DNA of 64,000 nt, taken from positions 10,180-74,179 of the forward strand of contig VBIS01000160.1 in assembly GCA_005880605.1 (NCBI GenBank). The letters are read 5' to 3'. The DNA comes from Chloroflexota bacterium. GTDB taxonomy: Bacteria > Chloroflexota > Dormibacteria > CF-121. Position numbers and translations under genes: made by a program. Positions 4,505-41,175 of the stretch are shown here, piece by piece. The notes beneath the pieces were generated by a model that made no database searches, was not told the origin of the DNA, and worked only from the letters and a program-made list of their open reading frames with translations. Position 1 is the first letter of the stretch. Each line of letters opens with the position of its first letter.

Positions 4505-4534
4505 ATCGTATTGTCACTACCTAAGGAGGGTTCC

Positions 4535-4837
4535 ATGAAGCTACGTCCACTGGGCGACCGCGTTGTGATCAAGCCCGTCGAGCGTGAGGAGAAGACCAAG
4601 AGCGGCATCGTGCTGCCGGACACCGCCAAGGAAAAGCCGCAGGAAGGCATGATCGAGGCCGTCGGCAACGGTCGGTTCATCGAGACCACCGGCAAGCGGG
4701 AGCCGCTCGACGTCAAGGTCGGCGACCGTGTCGTCTATGCGAAGTACGCCGGGAGCGAGATCAAGATCGAGGAAGTCGAGTACCTGATCCTGTCCGAGAA
4801 GGACATCCTGGCCGTCGTCGCGAACGGCAAGAGCTAA
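4535..4837 (+). CDS. groES: Co-chaperonin GroES (10 kDa).
   Basis: [14 protein letters not shown]...[21 protein letters not shown] matches GroES. An AAGGAGG ribosome-binding site lies 6 nt upstream of the ATG. No groEL follows. Confidence 0.9.
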
Positions 4838-4855
4838 CCACCGCACATCGACCGC

Positions 4856-4882
4856 GAGCCAGCCTGCGGGCTGGCTTTTTTT
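4856..4882 (+). terminator. Rho-independent terminator of groES.
   Basis: A perfect 8-bp stem AGCCAGCC/GGCTGGCT with loop TGCG is followed by T7. Confidence 0.8.
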
Positions 4883-5426
4883 ATTCCGCCTCGCCGCCTG
4901 CGGGGGAGGGTCGGGTCGGGGCGTTGCCTTTCGCGCGCGGGATCATCGGCAGCGCCAGCATCGCCTCGTTCATCTCGGCGTACTGTTCCTGGCTGCGCCA
5001 GTCGTAGTGCGGATTGCGCCAGCGGACATACCCGCGGTAATCGATCAAGAACAGCGACCGGTGCGCCACGCCACGCTCTTCATTCAGGACGCCATATTTG
5101 CGCGAAACCGACTTGTCCCAGTCGGCCAGGATCGGGAACGGAAGATCGCCCAGGCTCTTCGCATACGCCTTGTGCGCCCAGATGTGGTCGACGCTGATAC
5201 CCAGCACCTGCGTCTCGGCTTTGACGAACTGCTCGTGATCACCCCGCAAGGAGGTGAGCTCATTGGTTCAACCGGGGCTGAAGTCGAAGACGTAGAACGC
5301 GAGCAGCACGTGTTTGCTGCCGCGGAATGATGCGAGGCTGACCTGGTCGCCGTCAGGCGTCCCTGGCAGGTTGAAGTCCGGCGCCTGGTCACCCACGCCA
5401 GGCATCGACGGCAGGGTGCTGGACAT
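4881..5426 (-). CDS. BCP/PrxQ-type peroxiredoxin with an in-frame TGA at the peroxidatic-cysteine position. Candidate selenocysteine-containing peroxiredoxin (181 aa, U53).
   Basis: The minus strand encodes [83 protein letters not shown]...[17 protein letters not shown]. The TGA (plus coordinates 5268-5270) replaces the Cys of the universal FYP.DF(T/S)PG-C-T motif. The flanking sequence is in frame and homologous to Bcp on both sides of the TGA. Confidence 0.6.
4891..4925 (+). repeat. Copy B of the G-rich hairpin/G4 repeat: CCGCCTGCGGGGGAGGGTCGGGTCGGGG.
   Basis: Shares the GCGGGGGAGGGT(A/C)GGGT(C/G)GGGG core with copies A and C. On the minus strand it encodes the C-terminal tail ([12 protein letters not shown]) of the peroxiredoxin. 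Confidence 0.55.
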
Positions 5427-5443
5427 CGACCTATTGTAAGGCC

Positions 5444-6082
5444 GTGATTTTCCGCGACCGGCTCGACGCGGGCGAACGCCTGGCGGCAGCGCTCCAGCAG
5501 TACCGCGACGCGCCGGCGACCCTAGTGCTCGGCATCCCGCGCGGCGGCGTCGTCGTGGCGCGGGCGATTGCGGCTGCGCTGCATCTGCCGCTTGGCATCT
5601 GCCCGGTGCGCAAGCTCGGCGCCCCTGACAACCCGGAGCTGGCGATCGGCGCGGTCGACGACCAGGGCGTCACGGTCTTGGATCACAAGCTGAGCCGGCA
5701 CCTGGGCCTGACGGACGACGAACTGCTCGACGCCGCAGCGCGCCAGCGCGACGAACTGCGCGCCTGGTTGGCCGCGCTGGGGGCGAATGCCATCCCGCCG
5801 TTGCAGGGGCGGACGGCCATCCTTACCGACGACGGCGTCGCGACCGGCTACACCGCGCAGGCTGGCATCGAGTCGCTCCGCCGGCGGGGGGCGCAGCGGG
5901 TGGTGCTGGCGGTCCCGGTCGCACCACCCGATACGGCGGCCGTGCTGGCCGGACAGGTCGATGAGTTCGTCTGCCTCGTCACGCCGGAGCCGTTCTACGC
6001 GGTCGGCAACTTCTTCGAAGAGTGGCCACAGGTCACCGACGACGAGGTGCGAGCGCTGTTGCTGGCCGGTAACACGTTGTAG
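5444..6082 (+). CDS. Phosphoribosyltransferase-family protein (type I PRTase fold), function unknown.
   Basis: N-terminus [14 protein letters not shown] and a PRPP-binding-like [12 protein letters not shown] motif. The GTG start lies only 17 nt from the divergent peroxiredoxin ATG. Confidence 0.6.
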
Positions 6083-6132: not shown

Positions 6133-7608
6133 GTGAAGCTCTTCGCCAAGGGCAAGGTGGAGAAGGGCGGCCAGCAGCCAGCGGCGCCCGCGTTCAGCCC
6201 CATCAATCGATTCGGCCTGCTTGGCCTCCTCGACCAGGTGGTCAATGGTTCCCAGACGGGCGTGCTCGAGTTGCACGAGCCGCGAGGGAACTGGGTGTAT
6301 GCCTTCCAGGGCGGTGCCCTGACCCACGCCAGTGGCGGCCGGGTTCGCGGCGCTCGCCAGGCCTTCGATCTGCTCTGGGAATTCCAGAGCGGCGAGTGCA
6401 TGTTCGCCCCTGGACCCAACGCCAACCTGGCGGGCAACCTCTATATCGACAAGCCGCGCCTGCTCGACTTGCTGCGACGCAGCCAGGCCGCGCTGCAGGG
6501 TCCCTCGGCGCCCTACATCCCGCCCGATCAGCAGCGTCCGATCGCCCCGGCCACCTGGCAGCCGCCAACGGCTCCTCCCGCCTGGGGAGCGGCCGGCTAC
6601 CCGCCGCAGCCCGGTTATCCCCAGCCGCAGCAGCCGGGATATCCGCCGCAACCGCCGCCGCAGGGTTACCCCCAGGCGCCGCAACCGGGCTACGCCCCAC
6701 AGCAGCCCCAGGCGTACCCGCAGCCCCAGCCGCCACAGGGGTACCCCCAACCGCAGCAAGCGGGTTATCCCCCGCAGCAGCCGCCCCCGGGCTATCCGCC
6801 AGCCTCGTATCCGGGTGCCCTGCCGCAGGGTCAGCCCTACCCACAACCGCCTTATCCGCAGGCGCCCGGCGCGATGAGACCGCCGGCCGGGCAGCCCCAG
6901 CCCGCTTACCCGGCGTACCCGCAGCCGCAGGCGATGCCACCGCAGGCGATGCCACCGCAGCAGCCAATGGCGGCGCAGCCTCCGGTTGCGCCACCCGCTC
7001 CGGCCCGGCAGGTGACGCCCCCCAGCTTTTCGGTCCCACCGATGGCGATTCCCCGGAAGCGCGAGGCAGCACCGCTGCCGGCCTACCAGCCACCGGCCGC
7101 CCCGGCGCCCGCCCCGGAGCCGGCCAAGCTTGCCGCGCCGAAGGACGACCTTGCCGCGCTGCGCGCCAGCCTGGTCGGGCAGGCGCCGCCGGTCGCGCAG
7201 GCTGCGAGCGCGCCGGCGTGGGGGCTCCGCGGCGGCGAACCTGTGGCCCCAGCGGTCGTTCCCGGACGAAAGGGCAAGGACAAGGTCAAGCACAAGGACA
7301 AGGTCAAGGGCGCCAAGGCCCCCGTTGTCCAGGGAAAGGCGGCGCCGAAGCCCGACTCCAAGCTCAAGGCCAGCATCAAGATCCGATTGATCAAATTCCT
7401 GCTATGGGCTTGCGAGCGCCGCTACTCGCCGGACGACCACTGGACGTTGAAAGATGCCTTCGAGATTTCGACGATGGAGCTTCGTGATCAGTTCATCGGC
7501 GCCTTCTCGGAGTCATTGAAGTCAACCAAGAAAACTCGCGAGGACAATTTCGACGACACCGACGACATGGCCGCGGGCCGCATGCGCGGCCGTGGCCGCC
7601 GCCACTAA
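6133..7608 (+). CDS. DUF4388-domain protein with a ~130-aa Pro/Gln/Tyr-rich low-complexity linker and a conserved charged C-terminal region.
   Basis: The N-terminus (LLGLLDQVVNGSQTGVLEL...WVYAFQGGALTHA...AFDLLWEFQSGECMF) matches the DUF4388 pattern. It is followed by degenerate GYPQPQ-type repeats and a KDKVKHKDKVK segment. Confidence 0.6.
   Translation: MKLFAKGKVEKGGQQPAAPAFSPINRFGLLGLLDQVVNGSQTGVLELHEPRGNWVYAFQGGALTHASGGRVRGARQAFDLLWEFQSGECMFAPGPNANLAGNLYIDKPRLLDLLRRSQAALQGPSAPYIPPDQQRPIAPATWQPPTAPPAWGAAGYPPQPGYPQPQQPGYPPQPPPQGYPQAPQPGYAPQQPQAYPQPQPPQGYPQPQQAGYPPQQPPPGYPPASYPGALPQGQPYPQPPYPQAPGAMRPPAGQPQPAYPAYPQPQAMPPQAMPPQQPMAAQPPVAPPAPARQVTPPSFSVPPMAIPRKREAAPLPAYQPPAAPAPAPEPAKLAAPKDDLAALRASLVGQAPPVAQAASAPAWGLRGGEPVAPAVVPGRKGKDKVKHKDKVKGAKAPVVQGKAAPKPDSKLKASIKIRLIKFLLWACERRYSPDDHWTLKDAFEISTMELRDQFIGAFSESLKSTKKTREDNFDDTDDMAAGRMRGRGRRH
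6580..6990 (+). repeat. Degenerate tandem coding repeats (GYPPQP / PQPQ units) within the DUF4388 gene.
   Basis: Reiterated ggntayccnccncagccg-type units at the DNA level encode PQ-rich low-complexity protein. Confidence 0.6.
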
Positions 7609-7665: not shown

Positions 7666-11879
<4,214 letters not shown>

Positions 11880-15529: not shown

Positions 15530-15832
15530 TTGGCCGAACCCGAGTCCGAGCTTTCGTCCCGTGAAGTCGAGCATGTCGCGCGCCTGGCGCGCTTGGGGAT
15601 CACCGCAGACGAGGTCGTCCGCTACCGCGATCAGCTCAGGCACATCCTGACCGCGATCGATGCCCTGAAGCAGGCCGATACCTCGACCGTTCCGGCGACC
15701 GCCCACCCGCTCGAGGAGCGCAACGTCATGCGCGAGGACCGGCGCGAACCCTCCCTGCCCGCCGAAATGGCGTTGAAGAACGCACCCAGCCGCGAGGGCT
15801 CGTACTTCAAGGTCAAGGCGATCCAGGAATGA
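15530..15832 (+). CDS. gatC: Asp/Glu-tRNA amidotransferase subunit C.
   Basis: ~100 aa protein (ARLARLGITADEVVRYRDQL) immediately upstream of gatA and gatB. Confidence 0.8.
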   Translation: MAEPESELSSREVEHVARLARLGITADEVVRYRDQLRHILTAIDALKQADTSTVPATAHPLEERNVMREDRREPSLPAEMALKNAPSREGSYFKVKAIQE

Positions 15833-38325: not shown

Positions 38326-41175
38326 TTGATCGTGACAGCACCACAGGACGAGCCGAAAGCGAGGCCGCGGCTCGTCCTCATCGACGGCCACTCCCTGGTC
38401 TACCGGGCCTTTTTCGCGCTCCCCTCGTTGACCGACAGGAATGGCCGGATGGTCAATGCGGCCTACGGGTTCACGTCGATGCTGTTGCTGGCCCTCCAGG
38501 AGCACCCGGACTACGTCCTGGCCTCGTTCGATCTGGGTGGCCGGACCTTCCGGCACGAGGAGCTGGCCCAGTACAAGGCGACGCGCCGGCCCACCCCACC
38601 CGAGCTCTCGCCGCAGTTTCCGCTGACACGCGATATCGTTCGGGCGTTTGGTATCCCTATTTACGAGGTTCAGGGCGTCGAGGCGGACGACGTGATCGGC
38701 ACCCTGGCGAGGCAAGCCCGCGAGCAGGGCTTGCACAGCACCATCGTGACCGGGGACCTCGACGCGCTGCAACTGGTTAACGAGGACGTCTTTGTCTTGA
38801 CCAGCAAGCGCGGCGTGTCGGAGACGATTCTTTACACGCCGGACCGCGTTCGCGAGCGCTATGGCCTCGAGCCCATCCAGACCGTCGATCTCAAGGGCCT
38901 CGTTGGCGACGTCTCGGACAACATCCCGGGCATTCGCGGCATCGGCGAGAAGACCGCGATCAAGCTGATCCAGGAATTCGGCTCGGTCGAAAATCTCGTC
39001 GAGAACCGCGCGCGCGTCACCCCGCCCAAGGTCCAGAAGCTCCTCGATGAGCACTGGGAGCAGGCCTTGCTGAGCAAGAAGATGGCGACCATCCTGCTCG
39101 ACGTCGACGCCAAACTCGATCTGAGCCACGGCTCCGCCAAGGACTATCGCCCGGACGCGGCCCGCACCATCCTGGCCGACCTGGGCTTCCGCAGCCTGGC
39201 GGCGCGCGTGCCGACCACCTGGAGCGACGGCAGCGCCATGTCGGCGCCACCGATCTTTGCCCCGCCGGCGAGAGAGCAGGGCCGGCTCCCCCTCGACGGA
39301 GAACCGGTGCGGCCGCCCGCGCAATCGACACTGGCCCTCGAGTCGCCGCCGACAGAGGTCGTCACCGTTGTTCGCGAGACGGCCGAGCTCGATCGAGTAG
39401 TCGCTGCCTTTGCCGCGGCCGACCGGGCCGGCTTCCAGGTCGTGACGCTCGATGACGTGCCGAGACATGGCCGCATCGCCGCCCTCGTCATCGGCCTGAA
39501 CGAAGGCGAGATTTACTACGTGCCACTGGCACACGAGCAGGAGCGTTGCCTGGAGGTGCGACATGTTCTTCAGCGCTTTGCCCCGAGCCTCCAGAGCGCC
39601 AAGCCATCGAAGCTCGGCTTCAACCAGAAGGGCGACTACCTGGCGCTCCGTGCCCACGGGATCGAGCTTGCTGGCGTCGATTGGGATCTGCTGGTGGCCG
39701 CCTATTTATTGAACTCTGGCGTTCGTTCACCCAGCCTCGAGGCGCTCGCCTCGGACGTCTTGCATCGCGTCATCGAGGGGCGCGAGTCCTTGTTCGGCAG
39801 CGGCAAGACGGCGATGACCTGCGACCAGGTCGACATCATGCGGGCTGCGGCGTTTTACGGAGACCGGATGCGCGTAATGCTGGAGCTCGCACCGCGACTC
39901 GAGTCCGAGCTCGACCGGCTTGGCAACGCCGAATTGTTTCGCGATCTCGAAATGCCGCTGGTGCCAGTGCTCGCCGAGGTCGAAATTGCGGGCGTGGCGA
40001 TCGACCTCCCCTACCTGCAACAGGTGTCGCGCGAACTGTACGAGCAATTGCAGCGTCTGGACCAGGAGATCGCCGACGTGGCGCATGGGCCGATCAACGT
40101 CAACTCGCCGCAGCAGCTGGCGAGATTTCTCTTTGAAGACCTGAATCTCCCCGGTGGGCGCAAGACGAAGAGTGGTTACTCGACCGACGCCAACGTGCTC
40201 GAGGGCCTGCGCGACCAGCATCCCGTCGTCGGGAAGATCCTGGAGTTTCGACAATTGAGCAAGCTCAAGGGCACCTACGTCGATGCGCTGCCGCTACTGG
40301 TCGACCCGCGCACCAAGCGCGTGCACACCAGCTTCAATCAAACCGTCGCGGCCACCGGCCGCCTGTCGTCCTCCGATCCCAACTTACAAAACATTCCCAT
40401 CCGAACCGAAGTTGGTCAGAAGGTGCGGCGTGCGTTCGTGCCGAGCCGGCCCGGTGACGTCCTGCTCTCGGCAGATTACTCGCAGATCGAGCTCCGCGTG
40501 CTGGCGCATATGACCGACGACCCGGTGCTGCTCGACGCCTTTGCCCGCGGCGAAGACATTCATGCGCGGACGGCGGCCGAAGTCTTTGGCATCCCACAGG
40601 AGCAAGTTACGGCCAATCAGCGGCGCCTCGCCAAGGTCGTCAATTTCGGCTTGTTCTACGGCCTGAGCGACTTCGGCCTCGCGCGCGACACCGGCATGTC
40701 CACGGAAGAGGCGCGCACGTTCATCGACGCCTACTTTCGCGCCTACAATCGGGTTCGCGAATTCCTCGAAGGCATCAAGATCCAGGCCCGCGAGCAGGGC
40801 TATGTCGAGACGGTGCTCCATCGCCGGCGTTATATCCAGGACATTCGATCCCCGAATCGCCTGCTGCGCCAGGGTGCCGAGCGGATTGCCATCAACATGC
40901 CGGTGCAGGGATCCGCAGCCGACATCATGAAGCTGGCCATGATCAGGCTGAATAGCTATATGCACGAGGAGCGCCTTGCCAGCCGCATGATCCTGACGGT
41001 GCACGATGAACTCGTCTTCGAAGTGCCCCCGGCTGAGCGCGCTCGTCTGATCGAAGTCGTCCCCGACCTGATGGCGACGGCGTATCCACTCAAAGTCCCC
41101 CTACAGGTCGATCTCAAGCTCGGGCCCAACTGGCAGGACATGGAGCGGGTGCGGCTGGTTGCCGCCAAGGCCTGA
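38326..41175 (+). CDS. polA: DNA polymerase I (5'-3' exonuclease, 3'-5' exonuclease-like and polymerase domains).
   Basis: LVLIDGHSLVYRAFFA at the N-terminus and the polymerase motifs DYSQIELR and QVHDELVFE. Confidence 0.9.
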   Translation: MIVTAPQDEPKARPRLVLIDGHSLVYRAFFALPSLTDRNGRMVNAAYGFTSMLLLALQEHPDYVLASFDLGGRTFRHEELAQYKATRRPTPPELSPQFPLTRDIVRAFGIPIYEVQGVEADDVIGTLARQAREQGLHSTIVTGDLDALQLVNEDVFVLTSKRGVSETILYTPDRVRERYGLEPIQTVDLKGLVGDVSDNIPGIRGIGEKTAIKLIQEFGSVENLVENRARVTPPKVQKLLDEHWEQALLSKKMATILLDVDAKLDLSHGSAKDYRPDAARTILADLGFRSLAARVPTTWSDGSAMSAPPIFAPPAREQGRLPLDGEPVRPPAQSTLALESPPTEVVTVVRETAELDRVVAAFAAADRAGFQVVTLDDVPRHGRIAALVIGLNEGEIYYVPLAHEQERCLEVRHVLQRFAPSLQSAKPSKLGFNQKGDYLALRAHGIELAGVDWDLLVAAYLLNSGVRSPSLEALASDVLHRVIEGRESLFGSGKTAMTCDQVDIMRAAAFYGDRMRVMLELAPRLESELDRLGNAELFRDLEMPLVPVLAEVEIAGVAIDLPYLQQVSRELYEQLQRLDQEIADVAHGPINVNSPQQLARFLFEDLNLPGGRKTKSGYSTDANVLEGLRDQHPVVGKILEFRQLSKLKGTYVDALPLLVDPRTKRVHTSFNQTVAATGRLSSSDPNLQNIPIRTEVGQKVRRAFVPSRPGDVLLSADYSQIELRVLAHMTDDPVLLDAFARGEDIHARTAAEVFGIPQEQVTANQRRLAKVVNFGLFYGLSDFGLARDTGMSTEEARTFIDAYFRAYNRVREFLEGIKIQAREQGYVETVLHRRRYIQDIRSPNRLLRQGAERIAINMPVQGSAADIMKLAMIRLNSYMHEERLASRMILTVHDELVFEVPPAERARLIEVVPDLMATAYPLKVPLQVDLKLGPNWQDMERVRLVAAKA

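Follow-up and report, generated by a model that had tools for sequence, protein, structure and literature searches.

Analysis of a 64,000-nucleotide stretch of Chloroflexota bacterium DNA (assembly GCA_005880605.1, contig VBIS01000160.1, positions 10,180 to 74,179 of the forward strand; hereafter the window) led us to conclude that its peroxiredoxin gene prx, located at 4881-5426 on the minus strand, is very probably a genuine selenoprotein gene that encodes a 181-residue peroxiredoxin (Prx) with selenocysteine (Sec) at the UGA at 5268-5270. The initial annotation had proposed the gene as a candidate selenoprotein, a reading now supported by several lines of comparison. A Sec codon is favored over a nonsense mutation because the TGA is universal over at least 45 species-level genomes at a synonymous divergence (dS) of about 1, because the sequence on either side of it is under purifying selection while the retrieved cysteine-containing homologs (at most 47% identity) group outside the TGA-containing sequences in a neighbor-joining (NJ) tree, and because constraint at the RNA level sits exactly where a bacterial selenocysteine insertion sequence (SECIS) belongs. 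What makes the gene interesting is its host phylum, a consistently split annotation, the non-canonical loop of the candidate SECIS and a Pro-to-Val change near the active site.

The peroxiredoxin gene and its in-frame UGA

The gene and the codons that bear on its catalytic site are as follows.

4881-5426, minus strand: complete gene of the proposed selenoprotein, 181 codons, with ATG at 5426-5424, UGA as codon 53 and TAA at 4883-4881
5289-5291, minus strand: codon of Val46, position -7 from Sec, where peroxiredoxins normally have a conserved active-site Pro
5277-5279, minus strand: codon of Ser50, position -3 from Sec, counterpart of the catalytic Thr of the PxxxT/SxxC motif
5268-5270, minus strand: in-frame UGA, proposed Sec codon, aligned with the peroxidatic cysteine (Cp) position
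5058-5060, minus strand: codon of Arg123, conserved catalytic Arg, aligned with the Arg of GIALRGLFIID

Translation of 4881-5426 revealed the TGA as the single internal stop across 181 codons, in a protein of the AhpC/TSA type that contains no Cys residue anywhere. When Cys was substituted for the stop in the query, the Pfam AhpC-TSA profile (PF00578, cut-off 26 bits) matched residues 11-136 unbroken across the TGA (E=1.1e-34, 119.5 bits, profile positions 1-123 of 124). The coordinates and the motif given by the initial annotation, with the TGA on Cp of FYP.DF(T/S)PG-C-T, are correct, and its claim that homology continues uninterrupted on both sides holds as a single AhpC-TSA match. Alignment against solved 2-Cys Prx structures and Mycobacterium tuberculosis AhpE placed the TGA on the peroxidatic Cys, a column occupied by Cys in 53 of 53 aligned Cys homologs. 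All 15 Sec forms have Ser at position -3, where 52 of the 53 Cys forms carry Ser or Thr, and Arg123 is invariant within the clade in one alignment and nearly invariant in two other comparisons. Position -7 departs from the family pattern: Val46 aligns with the Pro of FYPLDF, so that the conserved active-site Pro of peroxiredoxins is missing here, and the position holds Val, Ala or Ile in 15 of 15 Sec forms versus Pro in 52 of 53 Cys homologs. Across 96 distinct sequences it is Val in 95% and otherwise Ala or Ile, and the Pro(-7)-to-Val substitution, as judged from these alignments, travels with Sec.

The loci compared comprised 48 from species-representative genomes, mostly Candidatus Dormibacterota and 'Chloroflexi bacterium CF_' soil bins with a few Limnocylindria or other Chloroflexota and a few short contigs binned elsewhere, together with 80 soil metagenome contigs. 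All 125 related loci that extend across the codon, 45 in GTDB species genomes and 80 in soil contigs, carry TGA there, with protein identities as low as 44%; neither TAA nor TAG ever takes its place. Two fetched loci are cut by contig ends at the site, and the sole locus with TGC is a 45%-identical homolog in an Actinomycetes metagenome-assembled genome (MAG; L048). No frameshift or extra stop was found in any prx copy. In the protein search, nearly all of the ~60 closest protein clusters (56-91% identity) are products of 102-125 aa, the ~25 truncated homologs aligned start at L/MR(G/E)D..., just after the stop, and a few N-terminal fragments end in ...FYVFDFSPG. Full-length Cys homologs (FSPGCTNE) appeared only at 47% identity or less, and in the NJ tree 15 TGA-containing sequences form one clade apart from the retrieved Cys homologs. 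Alignment with Sec- and Cys-containing Prx homologs thus agrees with the initial annotation, with UGA in all 125 relatives and Cys only in more distant ones.

The selective regime was assessed on the 96 distinct sequences. The ratio of non-synonymous to synonymous divergence (dN/dS) was 0.086 over the 40 codons upstream of the TGA and 0.090 over codons +15 to +100, with dS of about 1.0-1.2 in both flanks (0.99-1.19); from these values on the two sides it follows that both halves are translated and constrained as protein.

As a side observation, a near-identical Dormibacterota-type Prx locus (84-97% protein identity) is filed under Eisenbacteria, Acidoferrum, Thermoanaerobaculia and Binatus MAGs (L001, L002, L003 and L039). 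Three of these contigs measure 2-5 kb, and mis-binning, not horizontal transfer, is the probable explanation.

The hairpin downstream of the UGA

Three features lie directly behind the UGA.

5239-5257, minus strand: SECIS-like hairpin with 5' arm UCACCUC (5257-5251), loop CUUGC (5250-5246) and 3' arm GGGGUGA (5245-5239)
5226-5261, minus strand: suppressed synonymous variation over codons +3 to +14 (GAG CUC ACC UCC UUG CGR GGU GAU CAC ...)
5247-5249, minus strand: TTG (Leu60) in the hairpin loop, false start of the 122-aa C-terminal fragment (open reading frame (ORF) 4881-5249)

The initial annotation had suggested that the mRNA downstream of the TGA can form a short hairpin. Such a hairpin exists, although UCACCUC[CUUGC]GGGGUGA at 5257-5239 on the minus strand describes it better; it starts 10 nt after the UGA and has a 7-bp stem and a 5-nt loop that begins 17 nt after the UGA. 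Folding of its 24-nt core gave -9.3 kcal/mol and folding of 42 nt gave -9.8 kcal/mol. Synonymous variation is suppressed here, with dS = 0.25 over codons +1 to +14, about 4-5 times below the flanks. Among the 96 distinct sequences the codons ACC, TCC and TTG never vary, and conservation of CGA, GGT and GAT reaches 92-98%; apart from ACC, the fixed codons are minority codons in the genes of the window, where TTG makes up 9% of Leu, CGA 10% of Arg and GGT 11% of Gly codons.

Pairing is retained among the relatives: in an alignment of 46 distinct sequences, 88.5% of cells pair, compared with 35-56% for slid controls. In a Limnocylindria-like clade an A-U pair has become U-A, but the neighboring pair has become C.A. 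A divergent clade (L042-L047) carries the hairpin at the same distance with its register shifted by 1-2 nt, ACCUCC[UUUAG]GGAGGU, and a loop 18-19 nt after the UGA; within this clade a compensatory pair distinguishes L043 (ACGUCC/GGACGU) from L044 (ACCUCC/GGAGGU). Despite the differing pairing registers, all 46 distinct sequences in the alignment share an unchanged CCUCCUU, which runs from the 5' arm into the beginning of the loop.

This invariant core, UCACCUCCUU, comprises the 5' arm plus the loop start, and CACCTCCTT has a single occurrence in the 64 kb window. The core is identical to the sequence that usually forms the 3' tail of bacterial 16S rRNA, the anti-Shine-Dalgarno, as in E. coli, while the 3' arm in most relatives, GAGGUGAUC, is a perfect Shine-Dalgarno (SD) sequence. 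The match of the hairpin core to the anti-SD may be a coincidence. The SD-like 3' arm was also considered as a site of internal initiation, but this was rejected: the window copy has no start codon at SD distance, 5-12 nt beyond the arm, and an in-frame GTG found 12 nt downstream of it in some relatives is not conserved.

For comparison with known elements we used the consensus model for bacterial SECIS (bSECIS; PMC13188914, Fig. 2A), which describes a loop of 3-9 nt, an upper stem of 4-16 bp, a minimum free energy (MFE) of -7.5 kcal/mol or lower, a G at one or both of loop positions 1 and 2 and a UGA-loop spacing of 16-37 nt. The hairpin agrees with three of the four criteria, namely loop and stem size, spacing (17 nt) and energy. 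Like the bSECIS of Zhang & Gladyshev and the SECIS of E. coli fdhF, it is a stem-loop within the ORF directly after the UGA, with a 7-bp stem and a 5-nt loop. It differs from the bSECIS in lacking G(G/U) at loop positions 1-2, in its invariant CCUCCUU and in matching no Rfam model. The minimal SECIS stem-loop of E. coli fdhF starts 11 nt from the UGA, compared with 10 nt in the window hairpin.

Weighing the selenocysteine reading

Several results weigh against the interpretation of this hairpin as a SECIS and of the UGA as a Sec codon. The fourth bSECIS criterion fails, since the loop CUUGC has its G at position 4 and the loops of distant members are UUUAG or UUGAA, and the Rfam search found no family at the gathering threshold or at E <= 10. 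The stability of the hairpin is not unusual, with 39% of synonymous recodings of the same peptide folding at least as well and a z of -0.2 for a 76-nt fold against dinucleotide shuffles; given these two values, thermodynamic stability was dropped as an argument for the hairpin. Covariation is sparse, amounting to one pair with changes on both sides in 4 sequences, and is thin because the hairpin sequence hardly varies. From the alignment of mixed registers, RNAalifold returned an irrelevant 4-bp helix instead of the hairpin stem, because the divergent clade uses the register shifted by 1-2 nt. As far as the sequences show, the case for a functional RNA element is thus one of synonymous-site suppression and position, not of energy or covariation. 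Finally, tblastn searches with E. coli SelA, SelB and SelD found no selA, selB or selD in the 64 kb window or in the 128 loci (~1 Mb, all from the same ~20 kb syntenic region, ~2% of the genome), with weak cross-matches to ThiL and IF-2 only, and ARAGORN found no tRNA-Sec in the same sequences. As all loci hold this one region, the missing Sec machinery carries little weight.

We retain the selenoprotein reading, under which the residue inserted at codon 53 would be Sec. When the UGA occupies the ribosomal A site, the hairpin at 5257-5239 would lie at the mRNA entrance and, by analogy with E. coli fdhF, would bind SelB and recruit SelB.GTP.Sec-tRNASec, which would outcompete release factor 2. 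In the folded enzyme, a selenolate activated by Ser50 and Arg123 would attack the hydroperoxide to give a selenenic acid. Because the protein is devoid of any Cys, an external thiol reductant, presumably thioredoxin or a similar protein, would have to reduce the selenenic acid and recycle the enzyme in a '1-Sec' mechanism. It is also conceivable, though we consider it improbable, that the recoding signal of this Sec-Prx clade represents a distinct class of bacterial SECIS with a loop lacking the canonical G(G/U). The hairpin would then be an intramolecular SD:anti-SD duplex that may act partly via the ribosome's own anti-SD or a divergent SelB, not via the textbook SelB-loop contact.

Among the alternatives, it appears quite unlikely that the UGA is read through site-specifically with a residue other than Sec, either Cys delivered by a tRNASec-like tRNA-Cys, or Trp or Cys inserted by hairpin-stimulated near-cognate suppression. 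tRNASec-like tRNAs charged with Cys have been described, and the failure to find Sec machinery in the ~2% of the genome searched would fit such a scenario, as would a hairpin loop that lies off the canonical SelB-binding consensus (PMC13188914). However, a UGA at a redox Cys position with Cys homologs is the classical signature of Sec (PMC1794560, PMC13188914). Cys insertion by a costly recoded stop would hardly persist in 125 of 125 loci over a dS of about 1 when TGC or TGT is one mutation away, and Trp at Cp would inactivate the enzyme. A truly split gene, made up of a 52-aa N-terminal peptide and a separate 122-aa protein translated from the TTG at 5249-5247, is very unlikely, although every gene caller produces both ORFs and each half alone matches PF00578. 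The break would fall inside one thioredoxin-fold domain and remove exactly the catalytic residue; the six codons from TGA to TTG, which would then be an untranslated spacer, are conserved at 98-100% as amino acids in the 96 sequences; the TTG has no SD motif ahead of it and lies in the hairpin loop; and the stop is TGA, never TAA or TAG, in 125 loci.

Isolated in-frame stops in single sequences are usually caused by a nonsense mutation or by a sequencing or assembly error, and both explanations are refuted here by the comparative data: independently assembled sequences from numerous samples and no fewer than 45 species share the identical TGA, dN/dS stands at 0.09 before and after it, and no copy has frameshifts or further stops, which leaves a pseudogene or an error at the TGA base extremely improbable. 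Lower still is the chance that TGA has been reassigned to a sense codon genome-wide in this lineage, which is refuted within the window, where TGA is a normal stop, as the initial annotation had stated. At a G+C content of 66%, 26 of the 43 window ORFs with high G+C at third codon positions end in TGA. PcrA/UvrD (7666-9891) ends at a TGA one residue past its C-terminal tudor domain, GatC (15530-15832) at a TGA five residues past the end of the GatC profile, so that the Pfam matches of both end one to five residues from the C-terminus, and TsaB (2181-2831) likewise terminates at TGA. Several TGA stops overlap the following start codon, e.g. at 9888-9891 and 15829-15832.

When the window and the fetched loci were scanned for in-frame TGAs flanked on each side by coding signal, no other recoded gene emerged; the remaining matches were stop-start junctions (polA/mutM) or apparently non-coding frames. 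Within the window, only one further TGA joins two stretches of coding-like signal in a single frame, at 41173 on the plus strand. It was rejected as a recoding site, being the ordinary stop of the polA-like ORF, directly after which an fpg/mutM-like gene (PELPEVETI...) starts at an in-frame GTG. A second in-frame TGA site in the window was discarded for its lack of coding-like composition, with G+C higher at second than at first codon positions (GC2 > GC1). A motif scan for a TGA followed by the CCUCCUU hairpin likewise found prx as the only gene.

Known relatives, genomic setting and annotation

Sec-peroxiredoxins with a T/SxxU site are an established family of bacterial selenoproteins that has been catalogued since the early 2000s, counted in 2006 and listed in a 2026 inventory (PMC1794560, PMC13188914). 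Within this known kind, the window gene appears from its sequence to be a separate, unannotated clade of the 1-Sec type without a resolving Cys. It shares with the bacterial Sec-Prx (PF00578; the PrxU type of Eubacterium acidaminophilum, NF040737) the AhpC/TSA fold, the UGA at the peroxidatic SxxU, the existence of Cys-containing homologs and a hairpin directly downstream inside the coding sequence. Its score against the PrxU model NF040737 is 76.2 bits at a cut-off of 270, which places it in a clade of its own. In contrast to the PrxU type, the window protein lacks a resolving Cys and has the active-site Pro(-7) replaced by Val. The hosts differ as well, since the selenoprotein-rich organisms listed in PMC1794560 (Table 3) are mostly anaerobes, whereas Dormibacterota is an aerobic-soil phylum.

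With the Cys forms of PrxQ/BCP and AhpE the protein shares the local motif F-Y-x-x-D-F-S/T-P-G-C/U-T-x-E and a core of ~150 residues; M. tuberculosis AhpE aligns over residues 8-140 (E ~4e-20), and the E. coli-type BCP model NF006960 scores 64.5 bits. It differs from them in having Sec for Cys, Thr at position +5, the place of the resolving Cys in many PrxQ, and a C-terminal extension that is conserved and specific to its own family (WRNPxYDWRSxEQY...). The 'PrxQ/BCP-like' label of the initial annotation fits the local motif DFSPG-U-TxE, whereas the subfamily is not established, all NCBIfam equivalog models scoring below their cut-offs. Judged by sequence, the local motif resembles PrxQ/BCP minus the resolving Cys, and the overall score lies between Prx1, AhpE and BCP. 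Prx-SUH (NF045827) and the Prx-like thiol:disulfide oxidoreductase selenoproteins (UxxC) are likewise thioredoxin-fold selenoproteins of the wider Prx/redoxin superfamily. They carry other Sec motifs (CxxU, UxxC), and the 22 bits of the window protein against NF045827 (cut-off 298) are negligible.

Two further features flank the gene.

5433-5438, minus strand: TACAAT, a conserved hexamer resembling a -10 element, separated from the ATG by 6 nt (TACAAT-AGGTCG-ATG)
4856-4877, no strand assigned: GC-rich hairpin plus T-run in the interval between groES (4511-4837, plus strand) and prx, which converge; a 9-bp stem is followed by TTTTTATT

Most relatives keep CTACAATAGGTCGATG upstream of prx; in a second clade TATAGT stands at a comparably short distance. 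No SD motif precedes the prx ATG, and a two-hexamer scan found no full sigma-70 match upstream of prx. This arrangement suggests that the prx mRNA may be leaderless or have a very short leader. TACAAT sits within the 17-bp gap between prx and a divergent phosphoribosyltransferase gene (5444-6082, plus strand), a gap so short that both promoters must lie inside each other's coding regions. The hairpin at 4856-4877 is a probable terminator for groES on the plus strand and is perhaps shared with prx, as AAAAAA precedes the stem when seen from the prx strand.

The first 16 kb of the window contain thiG, tsaB, rimI, tsaD, groES, prx, the phosphoribosyltransferase gene, pcrA and ligA, and Dormibacterota MAG contigs are collinear with ~15-16 kb around prx, sharing 72-86% DNA identity. 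This collinearity assigns the window to a Dormibacterota genome and places prx in a vertically inherited housekeeping region. Beside it, a 491-aa ORF (6133-7608, plus strand) has a strong coding signal and no Pfam match; its center is long and highly Pro/Gln/Gly-rich (PQPGYPPQ repeats), and an ORF at the same place beside Prx in related contigs is also without Pfam matches. Across the window, an SD-like match of at least 5 nt in length ahead of any candidate start was found for only ~10 of 43 ORFs, groES (AAGGAGG) among them, from which translation initiation in this lineage seems to be largely SD-independent.

Gene callers split prx into ORFs of 52 and 122 aa on every contig examined. Among the ~60 closest clusters and 6 contigs no full-length product is called; the 52-aa fragment and 'redoxin' fragments of ~110-125 aa are annotated instead, and the truncated database matches inspected begin at the TTG position or a few codons before it. 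None of the curated NCBIfam selenoprotein models reaches its cut-off for the window protein. SECIS-first predictors would probably miss this Sec-Prx clade as well, because the hairpin fails the standard bSECIS loop rule, which makes the clade a useful test case for SECIS-prediction tools. A literature search for Dormibacterota together with selenocysteine or selenium returned no relevant paper, and should the recoding signal indeed prove to be a distinct class of SECIS, the gene would also be the first evidence of Sec decoding in Dormibacterota. With the gene call corrected, a widespread and uncultured phylum of soils regains an intact antioxidant enzyme, and the gene implies that Dormibacterota and related Chloroflexota lineages would possess a Sec-decoding trait, spent on a peroxide-scavenging enzyme in soils.

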